Assembly (NCBI GenBank): GCA_001821395.1
Contig: MHLM01000005.1
Coordinates: 1 to 28,217 of the forward strand
DNA from: Candidatus Lloydbacteria bacterium RIFCSPHIGHO2_02_FULL_50_18
GTDB taxonomy: Bacteria > Patescibacteriota > Minisyncoccia > Phycocordibacterales > UBA6899
Direction: 5' to 3'
Length of the DNA: 28,217 nucleotides
The position numbers and the translations under genes were made by a program. The notes below the pieces were generated by a model. The model worked only from the letters and a program-made list of their open reading frames with translations, searched no databases and had not been told where the DNA came from. Positions 532 to 16,180 of the stretch are shown here, piece by piece (the first letter of the stretch is position 1; each line of letters opens with the position of its first letter).

Positions 532-1209
532 ATGATTAAAAAAATCTTTACCACTCATCACAAGAAGATCATCGTCGGTGCACCGATCGTTTTTTTAGTC
601 ATTGTGAGCGGAGGAGGGATGTTCGGTAGCGGAAATTATTTTTCATTCGCTTCAAATAATAAAAATTTTCCTATCGTCGGAGACATGCTGCCGGTCACAT
701 TAGCAATGAACGCCGACACCCCGATCAATGCGGTCGGAGGGACGGTAACATTTGATCCGGACATGCTCAATGTTACATCGTTGTCACGCGTCACCTCGTC
801 CATCGACCTCTGGAGTGAAGAGCCTTCATATTCGAACACGGAAGGCACATTACATTTCTCCGGCGGACTTGTCGGAGAAAAAGCGTCACTCCCAATACAC
901 GGGACGATACTCACCATTAACTTCACCGTGCTCAAGCCGGGAAAGACCGTCATCACGATGAAAAACGGAGAGCTGCTCGCACACGATGGCGAGGGAACCA
1001 ACGTCGCATTAGGATCAAACACACTTTCCCTATATACACGTGAAATGAAAAATGCTTCCCCTGATGTCAACGGGGACGGCGTACTCTCAGTGAGCGACGC
1101 AAACGCACTGTATCTAAAAACTTTTTTTACCTATGATCCGCAGTATGACCTGAACGGGGATGGGAGGGTGAGCTGGGCTGATGTACGACTCCTCATTTCC
1201 CTCTTCTAG
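532..1209 (+). CDS. Small membrane-anchored protein (225 aa) with an N-terminal signal anchor, a cohesin-like domain and a C-terminal type-I dockerin
   Basis: The N-terminus IIVGAPIVFLVIVSGG is hydrophobic. The central domain carries LWSEEPSY, HFSGGL and ILTINFTVLKPGKTVI, motifs shared with the 348-aa and 581-aa proteins downstream. The C-terminus DVNGDGVLSVSDANALYL...DLNGDGRVSWADVRLL is two dockerin-style Ca-binding segments (DxNGDGxV). Confidence 0.8.
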   Translation: MIKKIFTTHHKKIIVGAPIVFLVIVSGGGMFGSGNYFSFASNNKNFPIVGDMLPVTLAMNADTPINAVGGTVTFDPDMLNVTSLSRVTSSIDLWSEEPSYSNTEGTLHFSGGLVGEKASLPIHGTILTINFTVLKPGKTVITMKNGELLAHDGEGTNVALGSNTLSLYTREMKNASPDVNGDGVLSVSDANALYLKTFFTYDPQYDLNGDGRVSWADVRLLISLF

Positions 1210-1325
1210 CAAAGCTCATCAAGCAGTCTTTTTACGATAAAAGGTATTAAACCACAGGGCAAGCCCTGGGCTCGCGAAGTCTCGCGCGAGTCCGCGGCAG
1301 AGCCGTGGGGTATTGAACCTTTTTT

Positions 1326-1349
1326 AGCTCTCCTCGGCACCACGGAGAG
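1326..1349. terminator. Candidate bidirectional intrinsic terminator between the convergent genes ending at 1209 and 1560
   Basis: The stem CTCTCC (1328-1333) pairs with GGAGAG (1344-1349) around a 10-nt loop. T5 at 1321-1325 precedes it and TTTTT at 1358-1362 follows it, giving a U-run in either direction. The stem is short. A GC-rich cluster of further small palindromes sits at 1255-1290 (CAGGGCaaGCCCTG; CTCGCGCGAG). Confidence 0.35.
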
Positions 1350-1559
1350 TACTTCCATTTTTCTAAAGCAGGATACTGCTAAGAAAAATTGGTCTCTCGG
1401 AGATGAAAAAGAAGACTTTTTTATCTCACTCACACTACGTCGGCAATAAGACTTCTGCCGATCTTTAATGCACTTCGCCCGAAGCGATATTTGATCGCAA
1501 CCCTGTAACCCCCCTGCCCACTCAGGCAGTACATCCGCGATAACTCGACCCATTCATAG

Positions 1560-3305
1560 CTACAATCGCGTAGGGGGGGCATGGACTTCGATATTCCTTG
1601 ACCGAGGTTGCAACACTACTTGTCCGCGAGAACTTGATACCTCTTGACGCTCCGAAATTTCACGAGCAGTTGGCGTCGACTCATACGAAGTGACTGGCTC
1701 TTCGTCATCAATAAATTCACGCCCATCATCCGCACGCATTTTTCTGAACATAAAGAAACCAAGTGCGGCGATAAAAATAAGTCCAAGGATGCCAATCGGG
1801 ATAAGCGGATGACGAGACATGAGGCCCCACAGTGAGGAGGACACGGTAACCCCGATGCGTTCACTTTCTTTCGATGTTGCACCTCGCGCATCGGTCGCGA
1901 TTGCTACGACGCTATATGAGCCGGGTGAAAGCGTGAGTGCGCTTTCAAACTCACCCTTTCCCGTAGCGTCCATCACCGTATGCTCGATCGTTGGCGAGTC
2001 ACCATTCCGCGAGATGGATATATCTACCGTAGCACCCGGGAGTGACTCGATGCTGAGCGCGAGCACTTCTCCCTCTTGCACGTTCGGATCTTTAAGAGAA
2101 AGACGTGGGGAAGAAAGAGAGATCACCTCGAAAGACAATTTCTGAGAAAGCATATTCCCCGCTTTGTCGTACACGAGCGCAGTCAATTCATGCGTTCCCG
2201 GTGACACGACATTATGATGGAACTCACCGTCCGAAAGGCTTTCCCAACGCTCTGAAACACCGCCGTCCAAAGCAAATTCATAGTGATCAATACCGGAGAT
2301 CGTATCGGTCGCATTCACCATAATAGTGATATTCGGGTCGGAATTATCACTCCGCACGACCTCTTTCGCAGTAAAATTCTCCGGTAGCGTGCGATCGGTC
2401 TGAATCTGATATGAGGTCTCATAGGTCTCGCCTTCAGCAAGCACTGCCGAGACGTGCAAGAACCACACCCCATTCTCGAGATCGACGATCTCTTTCGTGT
2501 TGACGATAGGCGTGTAGGCGATACGTGCACGACCGTTCAACTTCTGATCGAAACCCAATCGCAATGAAGTGATCTCACCATCGAACTGAAATAAGAATGA
2601 GCTCGATGATGCGTTATACCATGCTGACTGGTTGGGATGCGTTGGCGAAGATACGATCACTGCGGGAGCAGAGGTTGCCGCTCCAAGCACCTCACCGGCT
2701 ACGACTTCTTCCGACGCAGGTACAGAGACAACGGATAGATCACCAAGCTCCTTGGGATTGATTCGGTATTTTCCACTTGTGAAACCGGTGAGGATATTAC
2801 CCCCGCTGCCTTCATGTATCGCAGATTCATTTTTAAAACTCATACGCATCTCCCCCACTCGGAGGGGGCGCGCATGAATAGTGAGCATCAACCCATCAGT
2901 AAGCGGGGTTGACGTAGCAAGCGTTCCGCCGAACAATATTTCGCCGATCTCTTCATTGATGGACGGCTCTTGTGTCCACGATGTCAAGAGCGATCCTTCG
3001 CGCGACACACTCGTTACGGTGACTTCTTTCGGATCATATTCAATGCTCGCCTCCACCCCTATCAACGGACATTCAGCAGAAGTAACAACAACGCGGAGAA
3101 CAATATCATCGCCAACAACATACGTACCGACTTTCGGTGTGATATCGATCGTCGAGGCCGTAATCACCGGGCAGGCGGTCACAAGTGGAGCTGCGGGCTC
3201 CGGCATGATATCGGTCGTCGACGTCGCTGCAAATGAAGCAAGCGGCACAAGAAAAAACAGTACAATTATCGAGAGACGTATTCTTGGTAAAGCTCTGTTC
3301 ATCAT
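1560..3305 (-). CDS. Type-I membrane surface protein (581 aa from the MMNRALP start): signal peptide, cohesin-like domain, Ig-like domain(s), C-terminal TM helix and a ~75-aa acidic cytoplasmic tail
   Basis: The track ORF is 1560..3434. The start was moved to the tandem Met at 3305/3302, where the signal peptide MMNRALPRIRLSIIVLFFLVPLASFAA begins; the longer form would overlap the upstream gene by 112 nt. SWTQEPSINEEIGEILFGGTL and LMLTIHARPLRVGEMRMSF match the cohesin-like motifs of the 225-aa and 348-aa proteins. SGIDHYEF...ALVYDKAGN is shared with the 348-aa protein (SGVDHYEV...RAYDHARN). The C-terminal TM is PLIPIGILGLIFIAALGFFMF, followed by RKMRADDGREFIDDEEP... Confidence 0.8.
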   Translation of the reverse strand: MMNRALPRIRLSIIVLFFLVPLASFAATSTTDIMPEPAAPLVTACPVITASTIDITPKVGTYVVGDDIVLRVVVTSAECPLIGVEASIEYDPKEVTVTSVSREGSLLTSWTQEPSINEEIGEILFGGTLATSTPLTDGLMLTIHARPLRVGEMRMSFKNESAIHEGSGGNILTGFTSGKYRINPKELGDLSVVSVPASEEVVAGEVLGAATSAPAVIVSSPTHPNQSAWYNASSSSFLFQFDGEITSLRLGFDQKLNGRARIAYTPIVNTKEIVDLENGVWFLHVSAVLAEGETYETSYQIQTDRTLPENFTAKEVVRSDNSDPNITIMVNATDTISGIDHYEFALDGGVSERWESLSDGEFHHNVVSPGTHELTALVYDKAGNMLSQKLSFEVISLSSPRLSLKDPNVQEGEVLALSIESLPGATVDISISRNGDSPTIEHTVMDATGKGEFESALTLSPGSYSVVAIATDARGATSKESERIGVTVSSSLWGLMSRHPLIPIGILGLIFIAALGFFMFRKMRADDGREFIDDEEPVTSYESTPTAREISERQEVSSSRGQVVLQPRSRNIEVHAPPTRL

Positions 3306-3322
3306 GAAAAGAAACGCAAATT

Positions 3323-4369
3323 TTATACATCGACTGAATCTGATACAGGACCCTCGCTCCTCATCTTGCGGCGACGAAGCCATATCCACACGAACGCAAT
3401 CGCCAAAACCGTTCCTCCGATCAAAGACAACCAATAACGAACGATCACCATTGTATCGCGCGAAGAAGCCAGCGGAGCTTTTGCTCCATTTTGCGGAGGG
3501 AGAATCGCTTCAGAAATATTTCTCGCATGATCATATGCGCGCACTGTTACCCTACTCTTGAGCTCCTGATCGATGAGCACATACGGGCTTTTTGCCGTGA
3601 CAAATAGGGCTTTCTCGTATTTCTTTCCGCGCACGAAACCGAATTGCTCCGGATCGTCCTCTGATACTTCATAGTGATCTACTCCACTTTGTTTGTCGAC
3701 CGTTGAAAAGATAATGAAATATTTTCCCTGAAAAGTGTTCGCCTCTTTTGCCAGCTCTATGCGAAAAAGTTCAGGGGGTGTCGTATCTTCGAGTACAAGA
3801 TCGATCCATTCATTTTTCATCCCAAGCGAATTGAGTTCACGGACATAGGCACCTGAAACAAGCGTGAGCGGCGCCTGTGTTCCGAATCCGTCATTCAAAA
3901 GCACTTTCGTCTCCGTGCCAAAGGTGACCGCAAGCGCTTCCGGACCCGACGCAGTCTTTCCCCCGATCATGTTTCCGGGAATGGTAAAAATGATCTTGGC
4001 GAGAATATTTGTCTTTCCCGGATCGCCCTGCACGCGACCACAATATCCGGCGGGAATCCCTCCATCGAATCGTACGACACCATTATCAAGATCGATCATC
4101 GGCTCCTCGGGCCAAAGCGTGAACAATGACTCCCCCTTTGAGATGGCGGATGCCTTCATCCAATCGGTCGGATAATTGACCACAATCGATGCTGCGTTCA
4201 CGCATTCATCGTGGGCGGTATCGAGCCGCACCGTCAGCACAAACGTGTCACCGGGACCGAAATTACCATCCGGTGGATCGATCGAAAGTGTGGCAGCGTA
4301 CGCAACGGGCAGAGCGAGGACCAAATAGCTCATGACTGACAAGAGAATGTGTGCTGATTTACTTTGCAT
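3323..4369 (-). CDS. Membrane-anchored surface protein (348 aa): signal peptide, cohesin-like domain, Ig-like domain, C-terminal TM
   Basis: The signal peptide is MQSKSAHILLSVMSYLVLALPVAYAA. LWPEEPMI, RFDGGIPAG and IIFTIPGNMIGGKT are shared with the other two cohesin-like proteins. The C-terminus is WLSLIGGTVLAIAFVWIWLRRRKMRSEG. The stop lies 17 nt upstream of the next gene's start. Confidence 0.85.
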   Translation of the reverse strand: MQSKSAHILLSVMSYLVLALPVAYAATLSIDPPDGNFGPGDTFVLTVRLDTAHDECVNAASIVVNYPTDWMKASAISKGESLFTLWPEEPMIDLDNGVVRFDGGIPAGYCGRVQGDPGKTNILAKIIFTIPGNMIGGKTASGPEALAVTFGTETKVLLNDGFGTQAPLTLVSGAYVRELNSLGMKNEWIDLVLEDTTPPELFRIELAKEANTFQGKYFIIFSTVDKQSGVDHYEVSEDDPEQFGFVRGKKYEKALFVTAKSPYVLIDQELKSRVTVRAYDHARNISEAILPPQNGAKAPLASSRDTMVIVRYWLSLIGGTVLAIAFVWIWLRRRKMRSEGPVSDSVDV

Positions 4370-4428
4370 GTTTTAATTCATTGAACTTCTCCATTGTACC
4401 CCCCTTCCATTCTAATTTCTATCCCTAA

Positions 4429-4479
4429 ATCATTCTGCGACAGAATGATCGGGCGAACATTTTTTCCGCAAAAAATGTT
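4429..4479 (-). terminator. Tandem hairpins immediately 3' of the 403-aa dockerin gene (candidate intrinsic terminator)
   Basis: AACATTTTTT (4456-4465) pairs with AAAAAATGTT (4470-4479) around loop CCGC; this abuts the stop codon. ATCATTCTG (4429-4437) pairs with CAGAATGAT (4441-4449) around loop CGA, and is followed on the minus strand by UU. The first stem is AU-only, so termination efficiency is uncertain. Confidence 0.4.
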
Positions 4480-5691
4480 TTAGCCTGTCCAATTAAAGAG
4501 TAAGATCGAGAAATCAGTGAGATTCACGGCACCGTCGACATTCAAATCTGCAATCGCATGAGCGGTCCCCCAATGAAAGAGCAGGATAGAAAAGTCGACC
4601 AAGTTCACTTTGCCATCACCATTTAAGTCCGCATTCCCGGGTGTTTGCACGTCGCGTGTACCGACATAAAAGTTCACTGCCTGGCTAAAACCGCTCTTCG
4701 CCTGAGCTCCGACTCCGAATTGTTCGAACATACCCTTGATCGCATGAAATGCCTCATTCTCAATTCCTGTTGTAGGTACCGTCGCGTTCCAAAGACCGGA
4801 AGCGGACGACGTTGCCGTGGCACGCGGACTTGTCTCTTTATCCATGAACAACGAAACTTTTGCATTAGGGGCGGTCGAACCAAGCGCATCAAGCAATTCA
4901 TCCATGCTGATCTTTTTGGACTTCAAGTCGATCGTCGGAGGTAAGAAAACATTCGATACTGACGTGACCGCATTTTGTGTCACCTGAAATGTCGTCGTGA
5001 AAGTGATCGAGCGCACCCCCCTACCGTCGGTAGACCAAAAACCGAACGTGATAGGACCCGGCGTGACATTTGATGTCTCGTATGAAAAATCAGCGGCGGC
5101 ATCAGTCTGAACGACACCGACGATACTGCCATCCTTGAGGATGTTTACCGACGTATTTGGATATGCTTTCCCCTCGAGAATAACGCGTGTTTGCGCATGC
5201 ACGGGAACAGTTCCGTTAAAGACACCGCCGCCGCCGGAACCTCCCGATATGACCGGCGGAGGGGGGGGTGGTGCTGGAGGTGTTGACGTCGAAAGCGGAG
5301 GGGCTTCTTGTACGCAAGTCGCACTGCATAGGTCGCCACTCGTATTGTTCCCATCATCACACTGCTCAAGATACAGTGCCTGCAGGGCGTTATCTCCACA
5401 GTATGGGCCGTACCCTGAACACGTCGAATTACAGCGCCGCGCGGCAAAACTCGGCCCATAGGCTCCGTCGTTGAACAATCCATCGTCACATACCTCACCC
5501 GGGTTGAGTATCCCGTCATTGCAGATAGAGATCATGATCGTCGTCGTCGCTACCGCCGCAAGGAGACGAGCGGGAACAATGATCGAGAACAGTGCGGAAA
5601 AAAATAGGGTGGATACGAGCACGAGGTGAAGAGACTTCTCTCTATGTCCGTGTGCAGAAGCCCGCGAAATGAGTCGTTTGAGATGAAACAT
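4480..5691 (-). CDS. Membrane-anchored protein (403 aa): N-terminal signal anchor, two Myxococcus-type cysteine-rich repeats, Pro/Gly linker, beta-rich domain, C-terminal type-I dockerin
   Basis: CNDGILNPGEVCDDGLFNDG...CNSTC and CGDNALQALYLEQCDDGNNTSGDLCSATCVQE fit the cysteine-rich repeat pattern (C..GE.CDDGN...GD.CS..C). The linker is STPPAPPPPPPVISGGSGGGG. The C-terminus DLNGDGKVNLVDFSILLFHWG...DLNVDGAVNLTDFSILLFNWTG is a duplicated dockerin Ca-binding segment plus helix. Only 9 nt separate it from the upstream gene. Confidence 0.85.
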   Translation of the reverse strand: MFHLKRLISRASAHGHREKSLHLVLVSTLFFSALFSIIVPARLLAAVATTTIMISICNDGILNPGEVCDDGLFNDGAYGPSFAARRCNSTCSGYGPYCGDNALQALYLEQCDDGNNTSGDLCSATCVQEAPPLSTSTPPAPPPPPPVISGGSGGGGVFNGTVPVHAQTRVILEGKAYPNTSVNILKDGSIVGVVQTDAAADFSYETSNVTPGPITFGFWSTDGRGVRSITFTTTFQVTQNAVTSVSNVFLPPTIDLKSKKISMDELLDALGSTAPNAKVSLFMDKETSPRATATSSASGLWNATVPTTGIENEAFHAIKGMFEQFGVGAQAKSGFSQAVNFYVGTRDVQTPGNADLNGDGKVNLVDFSILLFHWGTAHAIADLNVDGAVNLTDFSILLFNWTG

Positions 5692-5700
5692 AGGTCCGAA

Positions 5701-6750
5701 TCACCTTCTCCGAGAGAGGTCGACAACTCCACCCGAGGAAGCGGCGCTGCGAGGTCGTCTCGGCGACTCACTTTCTGGGGGGTCACGATGCCGAGCGTCA
5801 TCATTGCTCGCGCGTTCTCTCCTCCGTCTTGGTTTTTTCATCCTAAAGAACATCACAAACATGATCAGCAATGCAAGCGTTCCTATCGGCAAAATGACAG
5901 AAAGTTGCTGTGAAAGTTTTAGCCCCTCAAACCCATATTCTTCATAACCGGTAATGGTCCCCCTCGGAAGAATGGAGAGCGCGAGTTCTCCCGCTTGAGC
6001 ATTACGCGTTTCATCTTTTTCAATCGAATACTTGACGCGATACGCTCCGGGAGGAAGCCATGTCGGGAAATAGGCGACGACTTTCTTTGTGTCAAACGGG
6101 AGGACGGAATCGACGGTATTTGAATTTTCGGTGGTTTCAAGCAATTGCTGTCCGGACACGTCAAAGATCTGCAACGAGACCTTGTACGGTATCGCCGGAA
6201 CATTGCCGATATTTTCAATGTACATTGCAAACTTCACCTTACCCGGAAAAGAGAGCCACCATTTTTGATGACCTTCCTCTGCCTCGAACAACTCAACACG
6301 GCGCACTGAGAAATCAAATATCTGATCCACTACCTTCAGCTGGACGTCGATCTGCGCACCGAGCGCAAGCGAAACACCGGTGGACTGACCCGCGGAGGAA
6401 GATGTACGGATACGAATGTTCCCGTTGTAACCGCCGAGTTTTGCATCATCGGGAACACGAACGGTCACATGGAGCTTCACCTGTGATTCGCCCTTTGGTA
6501 ATACAAATTTAATTCCGCGATCAAAAGAGAACCAGGATTCAATAGCGGGAAGATTCAAAGCAAGTTCGGCGTTCAAGTCCTCAACGGGATCACTGCGTAC
6601 AATGATGATCTCCTGCGTATATTCTGAACCGGGGCGTAATGTGTCGTTGTGCACGTATGGAGGAGTAATGCCAAAACCCGCGAATGCCGTATTCGCAAAA
6701 GCTCCGTAAAGAAGCATCGAACCCATTACAAAAAGTATCCCTCGTTTCAT
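5701..6750 (-). CDS. Surface protein (350 aa): signal peptide, beta-sandwich-like body, C-terminal TM and a strongly basic Arg-rich tail
   Basis: The track ORF 5701..6972 was trimmed to the Met at 6750, where the signal peptide MKRGILFVMGSMLLYGAFANTAFA starts. The C-terminus is LPIGTLALLIMFVMFFRMKKPRRRRERASNDDARHRDPPESESPRRPRS. An extended -10 box lies 19 nt upstream. The architecture is loosely reminiscent of the DUF916/DUF3324-type cell-surface proteins of Gram-positives, but this was not verified. Confidence 0.8.
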   Translation of the reverse strand: MKRGILFVMGSMLLYGAFANTAFAGFGITPPYVHNDTLRPGSEYTQEIIIVRSDPVEDLNAELALNLPAIESWFSFDRGIKFVLPKGESQVKLHVTVRVPDDAKLGGYNGNIRIRTSSSAGQSTGVSLALGAQIDVQLKVVDQIFDFSVRRVELFEAEEGHQKWWLSFPGKVKFAMYIENIGNVPAIPYKVSLQIFDVSGQQLLETTENSNTVDSVLPFDTKKVVAYFPTWLPPGAYRVKYSIEKDETRNAQAGELALSILPRGTITGYEEYGFEGLKLSQQLSVILPIGTLALLIMFVMFFRMKKPRRRRERASNDDARHRDPPESESPRRPRSAASSGGVVDLSRRR

Positions 6751-6769
6751 GGAAAATTGGGGCTCAAGC

Positions 6770-6778
6770 ATTGTAACA
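6770..6778 (-). promoter_or_regulatory. Extended -10 promoter element TGTTACAAT for the 350-aa surface-protein gene
   Basis: Plus-strand ATTGTAACA at 6770-6778 is the reverse complement of TGnTACAAT. It sits 19 nt upstream of the ATG at 6750. No convincing -35 was seen. Confidence 0.4.
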
Positions 6779-7278
6779 CATACAAAAAGCGAGTTTTTAG
6801 CGGGATAGGTAGACTGGGGACTAGCGGTGGATAAGATGGCGCTCGGGTTTTCTTCTTTTGAAAGGAACATCATCAATTTTTCCAGCAAAAATTGTGATTC
6901 TGCTCGGCAAGCCAGGCTTAGCCAGGGGCAAAGACCGAGCCCTGGCTCAGAAGCCTCCGCAAGTCCTTTCAAAAGAAGAAAAACCTCGCTTGGAAAAGGG
7001 CGAGTTCTGCGCTAGGGGCTCCGAAGCAACGAGTCTCTCTCGCTTAAAAAAATATGTGCTTCAACGCTGCTGGGGTACCGAAAGTATCTACTCACCTCGC
7101 TGAAGAGGAAAATGACGTATATTTCCGCATCCGAGGCGATTTCACAAAGCAAACACCCCTTTTAGAGAGAGATGGGGGGGGAACTGTGATACAAGAAAAG
7201 TATTTAGGTTACGGATATTCTTATAACTATACCACCAAGATTCCTATTACAAAGCCGGGTAGCACGTAAGGGAATTAT

Positions 7279-7345
7279 AAAATTCTCTTAAATTTTGATG
7301 CGATACGAGGCGCAAGCAAACAGTATCGAGGAGGCGTACTCAGGA
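7279..7345. repeat. Copy 1 of a ~65-bp intergenic direct repeat (partner at 7590-7657, ~85% identity)
   Basis: AAAATTCTCTTAAATTTTGATGCGATACGAGGCGCAAGCAAACAGTATCGAGGAGGCGTACTCA at 7279-7345 aligns with AAAATTCTCGTTAATTTTGATGCGATACGAGGCGCAAACAAGCAGTACCGAGGAGACGTACTCA at 7590-7657. CGATACGAGGCGCAA is identical in both. The copies differ by one 1-nt indel and a few transitions. Confidence 0.7.
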
Positions 7346-7589
7346 TACGATTTGAGCTCCATGAGACGGTTGAATTAAGTGAGATGCTATTTGAACTCAA
7401 ATACGCATATATTTTGGATGAGATGCAGTCAACGAAAAACAGCACGAATCATGTTCTATCAAGCGTTCACGTTAATTGGGATGCAATTTCGTGTTTTGCG
7501 CCCGAGCGATGCCGGAGAAGCTGTATGAGCTATACTGCTCCCCGACTCGTTTGGGTTGCAAAACGCGAAGTGTGCCAAATTGGGAAACT

Positions 7590-7718
7590 TAAAATTCTCG
7601 TTAATTTTGATGCGATACGAGGCGCAAACAAGCAGTACCGAGGAGACGTACTCATCGTACTTCTCCTCGGTCTGCGCAGTGCAGCAACGACGTAGCGCGC
7701 AAAATTAACGAGAATTTT
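7590..7718 (-). terminator. Compound stem-loop immediately 3' of the 625-aa gene. A 19-bp perfect inverted repeat encloses a 14-bp hairpin and the palindrome CTGCGCAG, and carries copy 2 of the direct repeat
   Basis: AAAATTCTCGTTAATTTTG at 7590-7608 is exactly complementary to CAAAATTAACGAGAATTTT at 7700-7718. Inside it, CCGAGGAGACGTAC (7638-7651) pairs with GTACTTCTCCTCGG (7657-7670) with one mismatch around loop TCATC. On the minus-strand transcript the outer stem ends in UUUU and the inner hairpin is followed by a U-rich stretch UACUGCUUGUUUG. Confidence 0.5.
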
Positions 7719-9596
7719 TTACCAGTAGGTGCGATCGGAGGTAATACCTAAGATAGTATTTTGTCCCAAGTAGTCACCCGAAACAGTGATGGTGCCCGGT
7801 ACCGCAATTCCCCAATGTGTCGTCTTGTATGCCTGAGTTGCGGTCGTTGTTGATTTTTCGATATGAACAGCAAACGTTGCTCCCGGGTTAGCGAGGAGTG
7901 AAACTGCTGATGCATACGCTATCGATGAGGTGGCATAGCGCTGATTTGCAACAACGATAGTATCTGTTGGTAGACCGGAACAAGCTGCGGGGTATCCAAT
8001 ACACATGTCTGCCCCATAGAGCGTCTCATCAAGACCAAGATTGCCTGCTGCGTACATGTCAGTACGATTGAGCGATGAGTTCCCTACGGTCCCTGAGTCA
8101 TTGCCCGGCTGCAATCCACCGTATGCGATCGTCGTCGTTGAAACACTGTAAGCAAGGAAACTCGTGAGCTCGTTGCCACTTGATGCATCCACTAGGGAGC
8201 TGGTGGCAAAATTATTATCGGCGGCTTGCGCCGAAGCGAGCCAGTTTTGCGCCCAATAAGTAGGGTCGGTAGCAGGACCACCGGTTCCGTCGGTCGCGTC
8301 AGCTACATACCAGAGCGGGAATGTACAGTTCCAGATAACGTCAGAATCACCTGTTCCGAGGCAGGAAGCTGGACTTGCCGTGCACGTCACGTTCCAAGCG
8401 ATACTCGTGGTTGCCGCAGCACCAGGGTAGCAGTTATTCGCATTATACCACTGAGACTTATCACAGAATGCGCTCGTGATACCGGAGCGATAGACATCGG
8501 TCAATCCGAAGACGATCTCATTCGTCGAGGATGCAGTCTGACAGCTGTTCTGGTCCGATACCGTATATTGGACACTAAAGCCCGGCGTTTGCGTTGCGAT
8601 ACCAGTAAGTATTAAATTTCCCGAGCCATCTGTATCAAGCAAACTAATAGAGGCAGCCGCGATCGTTGGTGTCATATTATTAACAATGAGCGAACGATTG
8701 GTCCCCTGCATTCCACCCAGGGCCGCGAGGCCACCATGGGCATCGATCACATAGCCATATGCGGCGAAGGTACCATCCGGGTCAGGATTTGGGAGGACAA
8801 CCGTTGTCGTTGGTGTTGCAGTAGCGAACGGCGAAACTCCCCATGTGCCCCCCGCTCCGCATGCTGTACCCGTAAAGTCTGCTGCTTTGCAGACGAACAG
8901 TTCAACAGTGTCAGTATCCGCACCTTGATACGTATCGGGGTCAGATGATGTCGCGTACCAATTGACCGTGCCTCCGGGATTCGTCGGTGAGTCATTCACA
9001 AAGAGCGTAAAGGTCGGACGATGATTCACTACAAACGGTGATGATGTTGTCCCACTACCTGATTTCGGCGTTGGATTGCATGCAGCGTTGACGGCATTTC
9101 CGTCGCAGATATACGCATACCAATCGTTGAATTCTGCACTAAATTGGGAGCCCGTGCCTTCAGTGGTCGTTGTTGCAACGGTTGACGTTGCCCCCGACAG
9201 TGTCGATGCAGACCGTATCCAGCGATTACTGACACCTCCCCCGCATTCCGGAGCTCCGCCATTCACGGGAGTTGGCGCAGACAATGCCTTACAAATGAGC
9301 AGGTAATAGTTATCTCCTGATGAGTCAGTGACGTTGGCTCTCCATGTGACATTTTGCGATACATTTGTTGGTGTCGACGTAGATGAACCCGGAGCTTCCT
9401 GCGCATCCCCATACGGACTATTCCATTGCGGTGGCGTATTTAGCACGGTAACTGAGGTCGTCGCATTATTTGCTAGGGCAACATTCCCACGAGGCACGTC
9501 GATGACAACTCCAAGCATGATAAGGCACACTCCAAGCAATGTAGTGGCAATAGTGATCTTCCCTCCGATCGTTGTATGAGAGTTTTTGAGCGTCAT
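7719..9596 (-). CDS. Secreted or membrane-anchored Ser/Thr/Gly/Asn-rich protein with many cysteines (625 aa); function unknown
   Basis: The N-terminal hydrophobic segment is KITIATTLLGVCLIMLGVVI. The body is low-complexity S/T/G/N/A-rich with many paired Cys (e.g. LICKAL...ECGGG, ICDGNAVNAAC). The ORF is long and uninterrupted. A TATAAT box lies 14 nt upstream of the ATG. Confidence 0.75.
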   Translation of the reverse strand: MTLKNSHTTIGGKITIATTLLGVCLIMLGVVIDVPRGNVALANNATTSVTVLNTPPQWNSPYGDAQEAPGSSTSTPTNVSQNVTWRANVTDSSGDNYYLLICKALSAPTPVNGGAPECGGGVSNRWIRSASTLSGATSTVATTTTEGTGSQFSAEFNDWYAYICDGNAVNAACNPTPKSGSGTTSSPFVVNHRPTFTLFVNDSPTNPGGTVNWYATSSDPDTYQGADTDTVELFVCKAADFTGTACGAGGTWGVSPFATATPTTTVVLPNPDPDGTFAAYGYVIDAHGGLAALGGMQGTNRSLIVNNMTPTIAAASISLLDTDGSGNLILTGIATQTPGFSVQYTVSDQNSCQTASSTNEIVFGLTDVYRSGITSAFCDKSQWYNANNCYPGAAATTSIAWNVTCTASPASCLGTGDSDVIWNCTFPLWYVADATDGTGGPATDPTYWAQNWLASAQAADNNFATSSLVDASSGNELTSFLAYSVSTTTIAYGGLQPGNDSGTVGNSSLNRTDMYAAGNLGLDETLYGADMCIGYPAACSGLPTDTIVVANQRYATSSIAYASAVSLLANPGATFAVHIEKSTTTATQAYKTTHWGIAVPGTITVSGDYLGQNTILGITSDRTYW

Positions 9597-9866: not shown

Positions 9867-11075
9867 CTACTTATATCTGATAGCGTCAAGCGGGTTTAAG
9901 CTTGCAGCGCGTCTCGCCGGGAAAACTCCAGTAAGAAAACCGACGATCGCAGAAAATACGGCGATGAAGGTAAGGAAGGTCAAGGGGAACGAAAAGAGAG
10001 AGACGGATTTTCCGCCAAAATTCGATGCGGCGACGTTCATAATACTATTCAGCACAAACCCAATAGTCGCACCAAAAAGAATTCCCATGATCCCACCGAG
10101 AAAACCGACGATGACGGCTTCCGCAACAAAGAGGATCTGAATATCACCGGAAGACGCTCCGAGCGTACGCATGATACCGATCTCGGCAGTACGCTCCAAG
10201 AGCGTCACGGTCATGGTGTTGAACATACCGATAGCAGACACCGTGAGCGCGATGCCACCGAATACTGCGAGTACCGCCTGAATACCCTGGAAGATCTTGT
10301 TCGCCTGTTCGACCGTCTTTGAAAGTGCGGTCACGACATACCCCTTCTTCACGATCTCCGTTTGTGTGGGATCAAGAAAATCACTTTTTGTGATACGCAC
10401 CTGTACTTTGTCGTATGTTTTTGTTTGAACATGATTCTGCAATTCCGAGAGTGGGATGATTGCGGCAATAAAATTTTCTTCGTTGGTGACCCCAACAACC
10501 TTATACGATTTATCGATGGCGACCTGCTCGGATTCATCAGTCCCCTCTTTCAATATGAACACACGAAAGTTCACCATTTTACCCAATGCATCTTTCGGCG
10601 TATTTATTGCAAAGAGTTTGAGCACCGCCTTGGTGAGAATCACTCCATCCTTATCTTTCGCCTCATTCCCCGCAAGGAAAAGATCTCCGGCAACAGCTGT
10701 CGCGCCAGAGTAACGAAAAAACGCTGGTTCTGCCCCCTGCAGGAAAGCATTACCCGAAAGTCCTTCAATGGTGATGAGCGCAGGAAAACTTGCAAGGGGT
10801 GTAACGTCCTTCACGTTAGGAAGTGCCGCAAATTCTTTTATGGAACGATCAGTAAGCTGAACCGCTTTCGACGGAGGATTATTGACCGAAAGCGAGAGCA
10901 ATGTTTCGCCGAAGACGATCTGCTCGAGGATGATGTTCTGCAATCCGAAGCCGAGACCAACGAGGGTCACAACGGCACCCGTTCCGACGCCCATGCCGGC
11001 AATAGTAAGCCACGTACGAGCCGGATTCGTCTTAAACGCACGCGTCGACAGCATCGCAATATCTTGAAGTCTCAT
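9867..11075 (-). CDS. ABC transporter permease, FtsX/MacB family (402 aa; TM1, large extracytoplasmic domain, TM2-4)
   Basis: The N-terminal TM is WLTIAGMGVGTGAVVTLVGLGFGL. A ~230-aa soluble domain follows. The C-terminus carries three TM helices and the FtsX-family signature ERTAEIGIMRTLGAS. Confidence 0.9.
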   Translation of the reverse strand: MRLQDIAMLSTRAFKTNPARTWLTIAGMGVGTGAVVTLVGLGFGLQNIILEQIVFGETLLSLSVNNPPSKAVQLTDRSIKEFAALPNVKDVTPLASFPALITIEGLSGNAFLQGAEPAFFRYSGATAVAGDLFLAGNEAKDKDGVILTKAVLKLFAINTPKDALGKMVNFRVFILKEGTDESEQVAIDKSYKVVGVTNEENFIAAIIPLSELQNHVQTKTYDKVQVRITKSDFLDPTQTEIVKKGYVVTALSKTVEQANKIFQGIQAVLAVFGGIALTVSAIGMFNTMTVTLLERTAEIGIMRTLGASSGDIQILFVAEAVIVGFLGGIMGILFGATIGFVLNSIMNVAASNFGGKSVSLFSFPLTFLTFIAVFSAIVGFLTGVFPARRAASLNPLDAIRYK

Positions 11076-11460: not shown

Positions 11461-12789
11461 TTAATGGTGGGCTTCGCCGGTGCGCGGAATGCCTAGTGCG
11501 ATCAATTTCTCAATCAACCGCGAAACATCGAAAGACTGCTTCTTATTAAGCCCCACACCCCCCTCCTTCTGTGACAACCCTACCTGATCTGCAAATTCAT
11601 CACGCTTAATGAACCCTCCAATACGCTGAGCGATCGCATCTTCAAAATGTTGTTTTCCTGTTGCGTCAAGACTGAGGTCAAATTGTCCTGCAACAAATTC
11701 TGCTATACGATTGATAAACTCCATATTGCGGATCTGTACTCCCTCGCCGGTTTTTGCGCGGCGAAAACGTTGGATGTCGAGGGCGTGCTCATTGATGCTC
11801 ATGAGTTTTCCGGCCATCTCTGTTGCGCGAGCAACAGGAAGTCCGACTCCTCCCGTATCAAAATCAGCCATCAGCGAACGAAGATATGTTCCTCCCTCCA
11901 TACGCCCTGAGATGACTGCCTCAGTAATCTTCTGAAGCCGCGTGATCTGATCGAAGGTTAACTCCTCGATGAGATAGTTGACGATACTTTTCACTTGAAG
12001 CTCGTTCGGTGAGTCATATGGATAAATACGCGCGATCTGTTCAATTTCGGTCACGATAGTCGTGCCCGGTGCAAGTTTCAATATTTGTCTTTTTTCCGGA
12101 TTCGGAACGATGCGCTCGACGCGACCATCCGTCATATAAACAATGCGATGCGCGTACGGCAGGTACTTTGCGTCGTGCGTCACGAGGAGCACTGTTTTTT
12201 TGTCTTTTGCGTTGATCTCCGCCAATGTATCCATAACCTGAGCCGCAGTGATCGAGTCGAGATTACCGACCGGCTCATCAGCAATGAGGATCTGCGGATC
12301 GTTCACCAAAGACCGTGCCACTGACACACGCTGCTGCTGTCCACCAGAAAGAAGGGTTGGCCGCTTGTGAGCAACTTTATCGATCATGAATCGACGGCAA
12401 AGCTCCATCCCCCGGTCAAAGCGTTCACCCGGAGGCACGCCGTCAAAGATGAGCGGGAGTGCGACATTGTCGAGCACCGTGATCGATGGGATCAGATTGA
12501 ATGACTGATACATGATACCCATCGTCTTTCGCTGAAAGTGGACCATCTGCATCGGAGAGAAATCATAGATGCTTTCACCGTTCACATACATCTTCCCCGC
12601 GGACGGCTCAAGAACTCCGAACATACAATAGAGCAGCGTCGATTTTCCACAACCGGACGGCCCAAAAAGAATGATATATTCCTGGTCAAAGATCTCCACC
12701 GTTGCTCCCTTGTTCGCCTTAAACTCATTCTCCTTCCCAAGGTTATACGTGATCTCGATCTTGTCTCCAAATATAATCGGCTTTCCCAT
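11461..12789 (-). CDS. ABC transporter ATP-binding protein (MacB/LolD-like NBD) with a ~215-aa C-terminal extension of unknown function (442 aa)
   Basis: The ABC motifs are all present: Walker A GPSGCGKST, Q-loop MYQSFNL, signature LSGGQQQRVSVARSL, Walker B ILIADEPVGNLD and H-loop LLVTHDAKY. The ABC domain ends near residue 225. Residues ~226-442 (11464-12114) are charged, have no recognisable motif and read as alpha-helical. Confidence 0.9.
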   Translation of the reverse strand: MGKPIIFGDKIEITYNLGKENEFKANKGATVEIFDQEYIILFGPSGCGKSTLLYCMFGVLEPSAGKMYVNGESIYDFSPMQMVHFQRKTMGIMYQSFNLIPSITVLDNVALPLIFDGVPPGERFDRGMELCRRFMIDKVAHKRPTLLSGGQQQRVSVARSLVNDPQILIADEPVGNLDSITAAQVMDTLAEINAKDKKTVLLVTHDAKYLPYAHRIVYMTDGRVERIVPNPEKRQILKLAPGTTIVTEIEQIARIYPYDSPNELQVKSIVNYLIEELTFDQITRLQKITEAVISGRMEGGTYLRSLMADFDTGGVGLPVARATEMAGKLMSINEHALDIQRFRRAKTGEGVQIRNMEFINRIAEFVAGQFDLSLDATGKQHFEDAIAQRIGGFIKRDEFADQVGLSQKEGGVGLNKKQSFDVSRLIEKLIALGIPRTGEAHH

Positions 12790-12926: not shown

Positions 12927-13313
12927 ATGAATAATGAACAACACACCGTGCTTATCGTCGAAGACGACCAGATACTGCTCCGCATGCTTGCGAATATGCT
13001 CAAGGAAAAAGGTCTCATTGTGCTCGAGGCAAAGAATGGACTGGAGGGTATGGCGCAGATAGGTGCAGCAATCCCCGACCTCATGCTGCTCGATATCGAC
13101 ATGCCACAAATGGACGGAATCGCGATGCTACGCAACCTTAAGGAAAACAATATCAAGGTCTCAACACTCATGCTCACCAATCTGACCAATAGCACCTATA
13201 TTGCCGATGCCGCAGAACTCGGTGTCAACGAGTTTCTCGTCAAATCAGACTGGGAAATAGACGACATCGTCACAAAGGTCGAAGAAAAACTTCTTCGTGC
13301 ACACCACTCATGA
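12927..13313 (+). CDS. Stand-alone response-regulator receiver (CheY-like, 128 aa; no output domain)
   Basis: VLIVEDDQILLRMLANML carries the acidic pocket DD. The phospho-acceptor Asp sits in LMLLDIDMPQMDG. STLMLT and the conserved Lys in FLVKS are present. The protein ends right after the receiver fold. Its stop overlaps the kinase start (ATGA at 13310-13313). Confidence 0.85.
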   Translation: MNNEQHTVLIVEDDQILLRMLANMLKEKGLIVLEAKNGLEGMAQIGAAIPDLMLLDIDMPQMDGIAMLRNLKENNIKVSTLMLTNLTNSTYIADAAELGVNEFLVKSDWEIDDIVTKVEEKLLRAHHS

Positions 13314-14305
13314 ATGACCCGAAAAAAAAATCTTTTTTACGCCGCGTACTCTTCGCAAACTGCGACGCACTAGGAGTGGGGATCTGGTCCTGTCCAAGTT
13401 TCATCTTTCTCATCATGGGAGCGGTGATCATTGTTACTATCCTGACAACCTATGTGATCGCGGAACAACACGCTGATCCGGAAGTCGTGATCGCCATCGT
13501 AACACTGCTCACTGTTTTTCTGCTCATCATCACTCAGGTACTCGTCAACGCATTTGAAAAGATCGTGCGCAGTAGGCAGGTTGAAGCGGCTCGCACGAAA
13601 GAAGTCGCCGAACTCAAGGATCAATTCCTCTATCTCGCTGTTCACGATCTCGCCTCAGCGGCAACAGCGGTAAAGTGGGGTCTCAAAATGCTTGAACGGA
13701 ATCCGGATAAAACACAGACACCTTACGAGCAGGAAATTTTTAGCAGTATTCGTACGCGAAATGATCGACTCGTTACACTCGTTCATCAGATCGCCCTCAT
13801 CACACAGATTGAGCACGGAGAGATCATGCTCCACACTGAGCCAGTCCTCCTTTCGGAGCTATTGAATGATGCGATAAAGAAGCAGCGGGGAGGAGATGCG
13901 CCTGAACGCGCCGCTTGTAATATCGATATCGCACCACAACTTCCGCTCTTCATCACCGACAGAGATTTCTTCAACGAAATAATTGATACGCTTCTTTATA
14001 ATGCACGCATGCATGCTCCTCATGACGGATGCAACATAGCGATCTCCGCAAAAATTGAGGCCGATACGGTGCTCGTTGTCGCAGTGGAAAATAATGGTGA
14101 AGGAATACCCGCTGAACTCCAAGCGCATATCTTCGAAAAATTCTGGCGCAATGAAAAGACCGGGAAGATCGAGCGTGCCGGATTCGGACTCTATATTGCA
14201 CAGTCCCTCGCTCGTCTCCTCGGCGGGGATATCACCTTCACCTCTGACCCCACCATCACCTGTTTCACCCTTCGCCTCCCCCTCACTCCCCCCGTAAATA
14301 CCTAA
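13310..14305 (+). CDS. Sensor histidine kinase, intramembrane-sensing type (331 aa; two TM helices, almost no extracytoplasmic loop)
   Basis: The TM helices are FIFLIMGAVIIVTILTTYVIA and VVIAIVTLLTVFLLIITQVLV. The H-box is LAVHDLASAATAV. The ATPase motifs are N-box LLYNARMHAP, G1 VENNGEGIP, F-box IFEKFWR and G2 GFGLYIAQSLARLLGG. Confidence 0.85.
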   Translation: MNDPKKKSFLRRVLFANCDALGVGIWSCPSFIFLIMGAVIIVTILTTYVIAEQHADPEVVIAIVTLLTVFLLIITQVLVNAFEKIVRSRQVEAARTKEVAELKDQFLYLAVHDLASAATAVKWGLKMLERNPDKTQTPYEQEIFSSIRTRNDRLVTLVHQIALITQIEHGEIMLHTEPVLLSELLNDAIKKQRGGDAPERAACNIDIAPQLPLFITDRDFFNEIIDTLLYNARMHAPHDGCNIAISAKIEADTVLVVAVENNGEGIPAELQAHIFEKFWRNEKTGKIERAGFGLYIAQSLARLLGGDITFTSDPTITCFTLRLPLTPPVNT

Positions 14306-14578: not shown

Positions 14579-16078
14579 TTATTTTCCGATGTTTTTGACC
14601 CATCCGAAGGTCCCCTGGAAGTTCTCAAGAATGATATCAATGATCGATTTCTCTTTATTCGGAGTGAATAAGACGAAGTTCTCTGATTTTGTTTTATTGC
14701 GTGCCTCATCACGACATTCAACCCAGAACTGATATACCGTTGACGGCAGGAACTCGACGACGACTGACACATGGTCAGTGCGCGGTTCCTTCTCTTCACC
14801 AAGTCCGCTCGGCTCGATCGCCGGGTTCAATCCTTCGCGATAAAAGAACTGACAATATGCCTGCTCGTCCGTTCCCCAGGAAACGATGGTCTGCACTTTC
14901 GCATCTGCGGAAGGAAACAGAGTTGATTCATTGGAAACCTTGGAGATGATGGGCGGAGCAATGTCCTTGATCGTCGTGAACGAGATCGGCGCTGATGTTA
15001 CTTTGTCTCCGACGATATTCTCGGCCTTCACGATGGCCGTATAGCGAAGACCGAGCGAAAGTCCGGCGATCTTCAACTGATGCGATAGTGCAAAGACCGG
15101 TGAACCCGCGGACTTCGCCTCCTTCGTCTTTGTGTTCGTATATTCGACGGTCCCGGCGGCAGGAATCGAGGTGCGCCATGCAACGGTCGCGGAATCTGCC
15201 TCAACTTTAATGATGCGGAAATTCATGATTGACGGCAGCTGTGCCTTCGTAATGAATGTATCATCGCGAGACTCTCCCGTGAGCCCGAGGTCCGAATCAG
15301 AGACGACCTGAAAATGGTGGAGGGTTCCCGGGGAAAGCCCGTTCACGCGCACAGAATGTTCACGCGTTCGCTCACCGGCATCACCGGATTCTGTGCTATA
15401 GGCCTTATCCGTTCCGGGACGATAGTCGCTATCGCGCGCATAGCGCACTACCCCACCGGCGTCCTGATCGGTCGACCATGTCACTATCGCATAATCACTC
15501 CCCACTTCTTTCACCCCCGGACTTCCGATGATGCGTGGCGCTTCAAGTACCTTCTTTGCGACATCATCAATTTCCTCGGACACAGCCCGGAGCCCCTCCA
15601 TGGACTTCAATTGACGAACGGAAGTGATGGCACGATCGACAATCACTCTTTCGTCTACGGGAATTTTCTCGAGTTCTTTTGCGCTCATGACACCCTTGGT
15701 CGTAATGGTGTAATCACCGGAAAGCGCCTGATTGCCCCCCTCGTCGGAAGAGCCAATACGCAAATGGTACATCGTTGACGGCTCGAGGCCTTCAAGAATA
15801 AGACGATGTGTTTTTTTATTCGGTATCGAGTCACGAATGACACCGTAGTCTTTTGTCAGACCAAAATTCACTTCCGAGTCCGCGTCCTCATCAGTATTCC
15901 ACGTGATAACAGAAGTCGTTGCATTCAATGAAACAATCTCAATATTCGACAATCTTGGGGGGATCCCGTCACCGGAAACTTGAGCGAACAAAGAGGCAGG
16001 ACCGAACAGGCCATACCCAATAGCACCTCCAACCAGAGAAAGGGATGCGAGGACTCCGAGTTTGTTCATGAAGCGCAT
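14579..16078 (-). CDS. Secreted protein with four Fn3-like repeats of the purple-acid-phosphatase N-terminal type (500 aa from the MRFMNK start)
   Basis: The track ORF 14579..16171 was trimmed to the ATG at 16078, where the signal peptide MRFMNKLGVLASLSLVGGAIGYGLF begins. Four ~95-aa repeats carry the T-W-x-T-D and ...V.YG motifs: SVITWNTDEDADSEVNFG, YAIVTWSTDQDAGGVVRYA, ATVAWRTSIPAAGTVEYT and TIVSWGTDEQAYCQFFY. Confidence 0.8.
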   Translation of the reverse strand: MRFMNKLGVLASLSLVGGAIGYGLFGPASLFAQVSGDGIPPRLSNIEIVSLNATTSVITWNTDEDADSEVNFGLTKDYGVIRDSIPNKKTHRLILEGLEPSTMYHLRIGSSDEGGNQALSGDYTITTKGVMSAKELEKIPVDERVIVDRAITSVRQLKSMEGLRAVSEEIDDVAKKVLEAPRIIGSPGVKEVGSDYAIVTWSTDQDAGGVVRYARDSDYRPGTDKAYSTESGDAGERTREHSVRVNGLSPGTLHHFQVVSDSDLGLTGESRDDTFITKAQLPSIMNFRIIKVEADSATVAWRTSIPAAGTVEYTNTKTKEAKSAGSPVFALSHQLKIAGLSLGLRYTAIVKAENIVGDKVTSAPISFTTIKDIAPPIISKVSNESTLFPSADAKVQTIVSWGTDEQAYCQFFYREGLNPAIEPSGLGEEKEPRTDHVSVVVEFLPSTVYQFWVECRDEARNKTKSENFVLFTPNKEKSIIDIILENFQGTFGWVKNIGK

Positions 16079-16093
16079 GCTCTCTATAGTATA
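16079..16093 (-). promoter_or_regulatory. -10 box TATACT plus ATAGAGAGC spacer abutting the Fn3-gene ATG (near-leaderless; same family as the ABC promoters)
   Basis: The minus strand reads gaTATACTATAGAGAGC-ATG. The hexamer is at plus-strand 16088-16093, 9 nt from the ATG. Confidence 0.4.
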
Positions 16094-16121
16094 TCGCAGA
16101 ACCGATAGAAATGAATAGAAA

Positions 16122-16150
16122 AACGCCGAACTCATAAAAAGTTCGGCGTT
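16122..16150 (-). terminator. Rho-independent terminator of the small beta-strand protein gene
   Basis: AACGCCGAACT (16122-16132) forms a perfect 11-bp GC-rich stem with AGTTCGGCGTT (16140-16150) around a 7-nt loop. On the minus-strand transcript it is followed by UUUCUAUUCAUUUC. Confidence 0.6.
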
Positions 16151-16180
16151 CACTGTGCATATCCATTCCACGCTGCGCCG

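Follow-up and report, generated by a model that had tools for sequence, protein, structure and literature searches.

The locus described here raises the question of what cohesin and dockerin modules, familiar from cellulosomes, are doing side by side in one gene cluster of a bacterium of the candidate phyla radiation (CPR), with no carbohydrate-active enzyme in the vicinity. The window (the whole stretch of DNA that was analysed) is a contig of 28,217 nucleotides (nt) from Candidatus Lloydbacteria (Parcubacteria), an uncultured bacterium from groundwater, and the cluster lies at its beginning. Five open reading frames (ORFs; hereafter referred to as A to E) had been singled out in an earlier note, made from the sequence alone, and all five were confirmed at their positions. 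They had been presented as five membrane-anchored proteins built from cohesin-like and dockerin modules, a description that holds for the modules of only four of the five, as E has neither, and for the anchoring of A, B, C and E, which have transmembrane helices, D being probably secreted. We propose, with moderate confidence, that these genes encode a non-cellulosomal cohesin-dockerin complex for surface display, held together non-covalently and dependent on Ca2+. The five ORFs, with their lengths in amino acids (aa), are:

532-1209, plus strand: A, 225 aa, cohesin and dockerin
1560-3305, minus strand: B, 581 aa, cohesin, immunoglobulin (Ig)-like domains and transmembrane helix
3323-4369, minus strand: C, 348 aa, cohesin, Ig-like domain and transmembrane helix
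4480-5691, minus strand: D, 403 aa, Cys-rich repeats and dockerin
5701-6750, minus strand: E, 349 aa, tandem Ig-like membrane protein

Proteins A, B and C were found to be paralogous over about 120-140 aa (BLASTP E-values of 3e-13 for A-B, 2e-9 for B-C and 2e-7 for A-C), which bears out the single domain of about 120 aa that had been assigned to all three. The motifs given for this domain are present (LWSEEP, SWTQEP and LWPEEP; FSGG, FGG and FDGG), except that B reads SW rather than LW. Pfam profiles had been named as a check on both types of module: the Dockerin_1 matches in A and D lie above the cut-off (see below), whereas the Cohesin (PF00963) matches lie below it, with 21.5 (A), 19.9 and 19.5 bits against a cut-off of 24.1 bits and E-values of about 1e-3 (9e-4 for B and 1.2e-3 for C). 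The database contains 67 homologues of A, with a constant length of about 225 aa, and among 47 aligned relatives Cohesin was matched in 17 at E≤0.01 (best E-value 2.8e-6) and Dockerin_1 in 41. The B orthologue in related locus L024 has a strong precomputed PF00963 match, and the automatic UniRef names are “Cohesin domain-containing protein” for B and C and “Dockerin domain-containing protein” for D.

The fold was assessed on A, to which B and C are tied by BLASTP (3e-13 and 2e-7, respectively). An AlphaFold2 model built on the family alignment had a mean predicted local distance difference test (pLDDT) score of 82, exceeding 90 in the cohesin domain, and a predicted template-modelling (pTM) score of 0.72. 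It consists of nine strands followed by two helices, the strands forming the nine-stranded, flattened β-sandwich (jelly roll) typical of cohesins. When this model was compared with the PDB by Foldseek, all of the top 50 matches were cohesins, with E-values down to 3.4e-9. The best E-values (3e-9 to 1e-8) were obtained with cellulosomal scaffoldins, among them the type II cohesins of Acetivibrio cellulolyticus, and the best target-normalised template-modelling scores (TM-scores; 0.70-0.75) with the non-cellulosomal structures 2xdh (Archaeoglobus fulgidus), 2vo8 and 2jh2 (both Clostridium perfringens). Two cellulosomal cohesins also came out on top, albeit weakly (E-values of 0.07 and 0.8), when PDB sequences were searched with a three-sequence profile. 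Profile, fold and conservation thus agree with the cohesin-type β-sandwich suggested in the earlier note. The family-conserved residues of the A cohesin (N66 and G69; L93, W94, E96, E97 and P98; F109, S110, G111 and G112) map to model strands 3, 5 and 6, which we take to be part of the 8-3-6-5 sheet that contacts the dockerin in solved complexes. We infer that this conserved face is a putative dockerin-binding sheet. The mean identity of the cohesin across orthologues is highest in C (0.59), followed by A (0.47) and B (0.38).

The C-termini of A and D carry duplicated dockerin segments, as the earlier note had read them, with Dockerin_1 (PF00404) scores of 24.7 bits for A and 33.5 bits for D (cut-off 22.9 bits) and the canonical two-repeat arrangement. 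Each dockerin consists of two tandem segments of about 22 residues, in which a 12-residue EF-hand-like loop (D1, N3, D5 and D12) is followed by a helix. The loops of A are DVNGDGVLSVSD and DLNGDGRVSWAD, each followed by a helix (residues 187-196 and 215-224 in the model), and those of D are DLNGDGKVNLVD and DLNVDGAVNLTD, each followed by FSILLF. The two repeats of D are nearly symmetric (NLVDFSILLF and NLTDFSILLF), whereas those of A are not. Only four loops of the form D-x-N-x-D-G-x5-D occur in the six frames of the window, one pair in A and the other in D; no further dockerin loops were found beyond the A and D pairs within 10 kb on either side in ten related loci. The predicted Ca2+ ligands show little or no variation among the 47 homologues of A, and the D dockerin is nearly unchanged across 13 orthologues. 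In both proteins, no other segment is as well conserved among orthologues as the dockerin, with mean identities of 0.61 in A and 0.80 in D. The number of cohesin genes per locus is exactly three and that of dockerin genes exactly two, A contributing to both counts with a cohesin and a dockerin on its one short anchored chain.

The modules of A to D and their topology are as follows:

residues ~13-33 of A: transmembrane anchor, uncleaved, after a basic N-terminus
631-1044, plus strand: A, cohesin (residues ~34-171)
1057-1206, plus strand: A, dockerin (residues 176-225), preceded by a 6-residue linker
2751-3173, minus strand: B, N-terminal cohesin, after the signal peptide and before a middle region with no domain assigned
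2121-2405, minus strand: B, SGIDHYE Ig-like domain
1830-2120, minus strand: B, Big_13 Ig domain (Pfam, 40 bits)
1737-1817, minus strand: B, transmembrane helix (residues 497-523), then a cytoplasmic tail of ~58 aa
3830-4294, minus strand: C, cohesin, after the signal peptide
3485-3802, minus strand: C, SGVDHYE Ig-like domain
3374-3442, minus strand: C, transmembrane helix, then a short basic tail
5302-5556, minus strand: D, two Cys-rich repeats, then a Pro/Gly linker and ~185 aa that are probably β-rich
4483-4641, minus strand: D, C-terminal dockerin

The Ig-like domain SG(I/V)DHYE...YD.A(G/R)N common to the 581-aa and 348-aa proteins was recovered as described (BLASTP E-value of 1e-3, with matches to OmpL47-type domains), as were the two Myxococcus-type Cys-rich repeats of D (TIGR02232, 42.3 bits against a cut-off of 20.8; PF13948, 39.2 bits against a cut-off of 27). 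B, C and E share a cleavable-looking signal peptide, a C-terminal transmembrane helix and a basic tail. The sole hydrophobic segment of D is N-terminal and, in its orthologues, ends in a conserved AxA (SASA, SAQA or SAFA) immediately before a conserved ATTTIxISIC. Because of this conserved signal-peptidase site and the lack of any other hydrophobic segment, D is probably exported with its signal peptide cleaved, rather than anchored in the membrane. D was also considered as a lipoprotein and rejected, as the residue preceding its first Cys is I or V and this Cys lies after the AxA site. Sortase-type C-terminal signals were considered for B, C and E (LIPIG or ILPIG before the helix) and likewise rejected: the tails are long, at up to about 58 aa, conserved motifs occur in them, and C has no such pentapeptide. 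The length of the tails and their conservation in E and B therefore disfavour sortase-like processing, and the hydrophobic segments of A, B, C and E agree with the anchoring by transmembrane helices, rather than by sortase signals, that had been claimed. In the closer orthologues, the B tail (1560-1735) contains G(Q/T)VVL..R and then a terminal PxTRL.

No family of glycoside hydrolases (GH), carbohydrate esterases, polysaccharide lyases or carbohydrate-binding modules (CBM) was found above threshold by Pfam in any protein of the window, in agreement with the claim that no glycoside hydrolases are nearby. A and D lack catalytic domains, whereas cellulosomal dockerins are carried by enzymes. Nor do A, B and C resemble scaffoldins, which combine multiple cohesins with a CBM and an S-layer homology (SLH) domain or sortase anchor: each has one cohesin and a transmembrane helix, and no CBM or SLH match was obtained. 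A role in cellulose degradation, which the earlier note had also doubted, is unlikely because the organism is a CPR bacterium with a reduced genome and the window contains no carbohydrate-active enzymes.

The cluster of A to E is present as delimited in the note, but the conserved unit was missed, as it extends to a sixth gene (hereafter referred to as F) and a MacB/FtsX-type ATP-binding cassette (ABC) transporter:

7719-9596, minus strand: F, 625 aa, N-terminal hydrophobic segment and Thr/Ser/Cys-rich ectodomain
9867-11075, minus strand: MacB/LolC-type ABC permease, 402 aa, MacB periplasmic core domain and FtsX domain
11461-12789, minus strand: LolD/MacB-like ABC ATPase, 442 aa, with a C-terminal extension of ~210 aa

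The order A (on the opposite strand), then B-C-D-E-F-permease-ATPase, is kept in the window and in nine related loci (L001, L004, L006, L010, L011, L013, L020, L021 and L024, representing about nine independent genomes), and in shorter contigs for as far as the sequence reaches. This synteny persists with A at identities down to 31%. The related loci are labelled Lloydbacteria, Parcubacteria, Paceibacterota or Patescibacteria; some carry the label “uncultured Saccharibacteria”, which stems from bulk binning and may be coarse. The most conserved genes of the locus are E (55-88% identity) and the permease (66-97%). F is syntenic with A to E wherever a locus extends far enough, the permease adjoins F in all long loci, and the ATPase is syntenic in L004, L006, L011, L013, L020, L021 and L024. 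The permease has a MacB core (MacB_PCD, 72.5 bits) and an FtsX domain (57.9 bits) in Pfam, with sub-threshold NCBIfam matches to MacB/LolCE, and the ATPase matches ABC_tran (99.8 bits) and, in NCBIfam, LolD/DarD-like families; together they show the combination of permease domains and cognate ATPase that characterises MacB-type (type VII) transporters. The C-terminal extension of the ATPase (11461-12090) had no Pfam or PDB sequence match, and tblastn showed it to be conserved in the related loci (37-75% identity). F itself had no Pfam, NCBIfam or PDB sequence match. Its C-terminal segment of about 200 aa is homologous to the extreme C-terminus (16757-17450) of a 3798-aa protein encoded further along the window (27% identity, E-value of 1e-7), and this homology recurs in several related loci (tblastn). 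The common segment may be an anchoring or assembly module.

E was predicted to have a signal peptide, two Ig-like (PapD/ASH/CARDB-like) sandwiches, the second of which looks CARDB-like, and a C-terminal transmembrane helix (AlphaFold2 model, pLDDT 81). The possibility that it is a divergent cohesin was rejected: hhalign comparison of the E and A families gave no alignment, the PDB profile search returned noise, and the model is a tandem of PapD/ASH-like Ig domains. The family is large, with 1020 representatives at 50% clustering. The cytoplasmic tail (5701-5840) ends in GVVDLSRRR, which is near-invariant across 13 loci (variants GVIDLSRRR and GVVDLSRKR); in more distant relatives of 420-500 aa (P0243, P0246, P0277, P0320, P0331 and P0336), an SH3_3 domain after the transmembrane helix replaces this short tail. 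The tail motifs of E and B could be docking sites for a cytoplasmic partner, such as the extension of the ATPase. The orthologues support the 349-aa start of E, the NCBI annotation giving a protein of 389 aa with a longer N-terminus. Upstream of the start of E lies a 22-nt inverted repeat (6845-6866 and 6964-6985, 95% complementary, arms 97 nt apart), and the surrounding segment (6815-6989), into which the longer NCBI N-terminus runs, shares 87.5% identity with the corresponding position in L001.

A, B and C are membrane proteins that each present one outward-facing cohesin, at the distal end of an Ig-like stalk anchored by a C-terminal transmembrane helix in B and C, and next to an N-terminal transmembrane helix in A. 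In the arrangement that we propose, D would leave the cell through the Sec pathway, lose its signal peptide and be retained solely by its C-terminal dockerin, plugging in a Ca2+-dependent manner into a cohesin, with its Cys-rich head displayed on the Pro/Gly linker, much like a cellulosomal enzyme in which the catalytic module has been swapped out. C is the first candidate for the receptor, because its cohesin is the most conserved and has the highest, though still weak, correlation with the D dockerin; A or B could also serve. The part of A would be that of a membrane-bound adaptor or cross-linker that docks to B, C or a second copy of A. More speculatively, E, F and the MacB-type transporter could be partners that assemble, energise or remodel the complex. 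A role in surface architecture or cell-cell attachment, as the earlier note had proposed, is a reasonable guess; attachment to a host cell in particular, or a part in envelope architecture, would fit the epibiotic lifestyle of CPR bacteria, although this is speculation.

Several observations weigh against this proposal. The three cohesins of the window score below the Pfam gathering cut-off. Mirror-tree partial correlations are weak, at 0.38 between the D dockerin and the C cohesin and 0.31 between the A dockerin and the A cohesin, and for many dockerin-like modules outside cellulosomes no cohesin partner has been identified. The link of the ABC transporter to A-F is one of synteny. Furthermore, E, the best conserved of the five proteins, lies outside any cohesin-dockerin logic; given this conservation and its WxLIP-like fold and topology, the key interactions could therefore lie elsewhere. 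The low profile scores and the weak co-evolution signal would suit a different arrangement, in which the folds are real and the modules unpaired, each serving as an independent structural, Ca2+-binding or ligand-binding module (for host glycans or peptidoglycan, for example) in a wall-spanning scaffold around E, F and the MacB-type transporter, with E perhaps acting as a WxLIP-like anchor for secreted partners. The position of E and the permease as the most conserved genes of the locus, the resemblance of E to WxLIP in architecture and fold (PMC10599100) and the conserved tail motifs of E and B, which suggest contacts on the cytoplasmic side, all speak for such a scaffold. We nevertheless consider it rather unlikely, as the dockerins are the most conserved parts of A and D and have invariant Ca2+ ligands, the conserved cohesin residues cluster on strands that bind dockerin in known complexes, the cohesin genes of the locus are always accompanied by its dockerin genes, and no WxL domain was detected in any protein.

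The module folds are those of cellulosomes, and the window covers only 28 kb of the genome, so that dockerin-bearing enzymes could be encoded at a distance and A, B and C could be the anchoring scaffoldins of a minimal cellulosome-like system. The absence of GH and CBM families from the window, of catalytic modules from A and D, and of extra dockerin loops from the window and the flanks of the ten related loci makes this very unlikely, as do the single cohesin per “scaffoldin”, the lack of a CBM, SLH or sortase anchor and the reduced genome of this CPR bacterium. Chance or compositional resemblance, with no real feature behind it, would account for Cohesin scores below the gathering threshold, but the paralogue E-values of down to 3e-13, a fold match exclusively to cohesins, two Dockerin_1 matches above cut-off and hundreds of conserved homologues in conserved synteny reduce its probability to a practically negligible level. 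The surface-display complex thus remains the reading that we prefer. A bolder version of it, which we consider improbable, would make the entire eight-gene array (A-F, the permease and the extended ATPase, perhaps with the FN3 and 3798-aa proteins described below) a single envelope machine, in which a mechanotransducing ABC transporter would use ATP to assemble, tension or release the cohesin-dockerin-linked structure, the tails of E and B being coupled to the ATPase extension; such an organelle for host attachment and episymbiosis would have been made from cellulosome parts.

The remainder of the window, beyond the ATPase gene, contains the following features:

12927-14305, plus strand: pair of a response regulator and a histidine kinase, in the interval from the ABC genes to the giant ORF
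14579-16171, minus strand: protein of 530 aa with repeats of FN3 / purple-acid-phosphatase-N-like domains, in the same interval
16181-16663, minus strand: ORF of 160 aa, including a signal peptide and alternating segments rich in Gly/aromatic residues
16757-28153: 3798-aa ORF, which apart from its C-terminal homology to F matches only DUF2341

In the window as in L024, the ABC genes are flanked by the gene of an FN3 protein, and the conserved neighbourhood may therefore extend further than the eight genes. The 160-aa ORF gave us, by eye, the impression of a small β-barrel membrane protein, which would be odd for a CPR bacterium; neither this nor a 147-aa ORF had a Pfam match, even at E≤10. Scans of the window for tRNA genes and Rfam families gave no match, and scans for promoter and terminator consensus sequences gave nothing above shuffled expectation.

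The gap between E and F (6751-7718, about 970 nt) contains no convincing ORF. It includes a 73-nt direct repeat (7270-7342 and 7582-7654, 88% identical), and a stretch overlapping the second copy (~7474-7586) matches, at 86%, the intergenic position between C and D in L015. The close relative L001 has a SAM (S-adenosylmethionine) methyltransferase gene between E and F, of which no remnant was found in the gap of the window. Between the convergent genes A and B, about 50-60 nt at ~1338-1398 match intergenic spots in L010, L011 and L012 at 79-87%, the counterparts being located upstream of A or in the gap between E and F; this stretch may be a small dispersed intergenic element. The contigs of the window and of L001, L004, L009, L010, L012, L013, L016 and L018 all stop about 0.4-0.6 kb upstream of A, and so many independent contig ends near A suggest a repeat or hypervariable region that breaks assembly. 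In L006 and L011, the genes upstream of A are unrelated to each other.

Parcubacteria rank with the most abundant uncultured groundwater bacteria and are thought to live attached to other cells; to our knowledge, almost nothing is known of their surface machinery beyond type IV pili. The locus is easily recognised and conserved, and its predicted interfaces can be tested with recombinant ectodomains, without culture, making it an entry point to the Parcubacterial surface. The novelty implied by the earlier note was overstated, as the general idea of non-cellulosomal cohesin-dockerin modules is established and B, C and D are already annotated automatically. The new element is a surface-complex locus that is deeply conserved in a radiation of which little is understood, and in which the linkage to a MacB-type ABC transporter is constant. 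Should the modules pair, the locus would be a clear natural case in which the cohesin-dockerin plug serves surface display and nothing else, with single membrane-anchored cohesins and a non-enzymatic cargo; it would provide new orthogonal cohesin-dockerin pairs for protein engineering, and the constant association with the transporter would be worth explaining. A search of full-text literature, with thin coverage of subscription journals, returned no paper joining dockerin or cohesin with Parcubacteria, Paceibacteria or Lloydbacteria.

Among known systems, the WxL/Csc clusters of Enterococcus and Lactobacillus resemble the locus in being gene clusters for a non-covalent surface complex, here a predicted one, in a monoderm bacterium. 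WxLIP, with the layout DUF916-DUF3324-transmembrane helix, is a membrane anchor for non-covalent surface attachment (PMC10599100), and E is similarly composed of a signal peptide, two Ig-like domains and a C-terminal transmembrane helix. The TM-scores between E and WxLIP are low, however (0.27-0.36), and are equalled by many unrelated tandem Ig proteins; no Pfam match to WxL, DUF916 or DUF3324 was obtained at E≤1, so that the locus lacks the domains that define a WxL/Csc cluster, and the docking modules here are instead a cohesin and a dockerin. The permease and ATPase resemble transporters of the MacB, LolCDE and FtsEX types in the MacB core and FtsX domain of the former and the LolD/MacB-like nature of the latter, but their scores for NCBIfam equivalogs lie far below the cut-off, the ATPase has its extension of about 210 aa, and there is no membrane-fusion protein. 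We found no case described in the literature of a MacB-type transporter constantly linked to cohesin or dockerin genes.

In Southlakia epibionticum, a cultured Saccharibacterium, SEML1_0315 is a dockerin-domain envelope protein that is essential in transposon sequencing and has been proposed to interact with the host (PMC10633639). Like A and D, it carries a dockerin and no enzyme, and it is associated with the envelope of a CPR epibiont. It differs in being one protein of 927 aa made up of Ig-like domains, in an unrelated neighbourhood and with no reported cohesin partner. It was considered as an orthologue of A or D and rejected, being a different protein in a different gene neighbourhood.

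The cohesin fold of A is that of cellulosomal scaffoldins, including the type II cohesins of A. cellulolyticus ScaA/ScaB (1qzn, 3ghp and 4wi0) and the cohesins of Clostridium thermocellum OlpA/OlpC (3ul4 and 4dh2). The predicted arrangement, in which a cell-bound cohesin takes up the C-terminal dockerin of a secreted protein, is also theirs, as is the use of a two-module protein as an adaptor, the part predicted here for A. The locus differs from these systems in the lack of enzymes and CBMs, in its transmembrane helices in place of SLH or sortase anchors, in its single cohesins and in sequence identities of only 9-18%. The non-cellulosomal modules of A. fulgidus and C. perfringens come closer in their context, an organism and proteins without cellulases; their structures (2xdh, 2vo8 and 2jh2) are among the Foldseek matches of A, and one A. 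fulgidus protein also has a cohesin and a dockerin on a single chain. The A. fulgidus cohesin-dockerin pair is a functional binder and has been used for surface display (PMC12484212). That such modules exist outside cellulosomes in all three domains of life is established (Peer et al. 2009, as cited in PMC10066038; PDB 2xdh, 2vo8 and 2jh2). Compared with the A. fulgidus and C. perfringens modules, the cohesins of the present locus, predicted to pair with its dockerins, sit singly on proteins anchored by transmembrane helices, the dockerin “cargo” carries Cys-rich repeats, and the genes belong to an array of eight, conserved in Parcubacteria, that includes those of a MacB-type ABC transporter.

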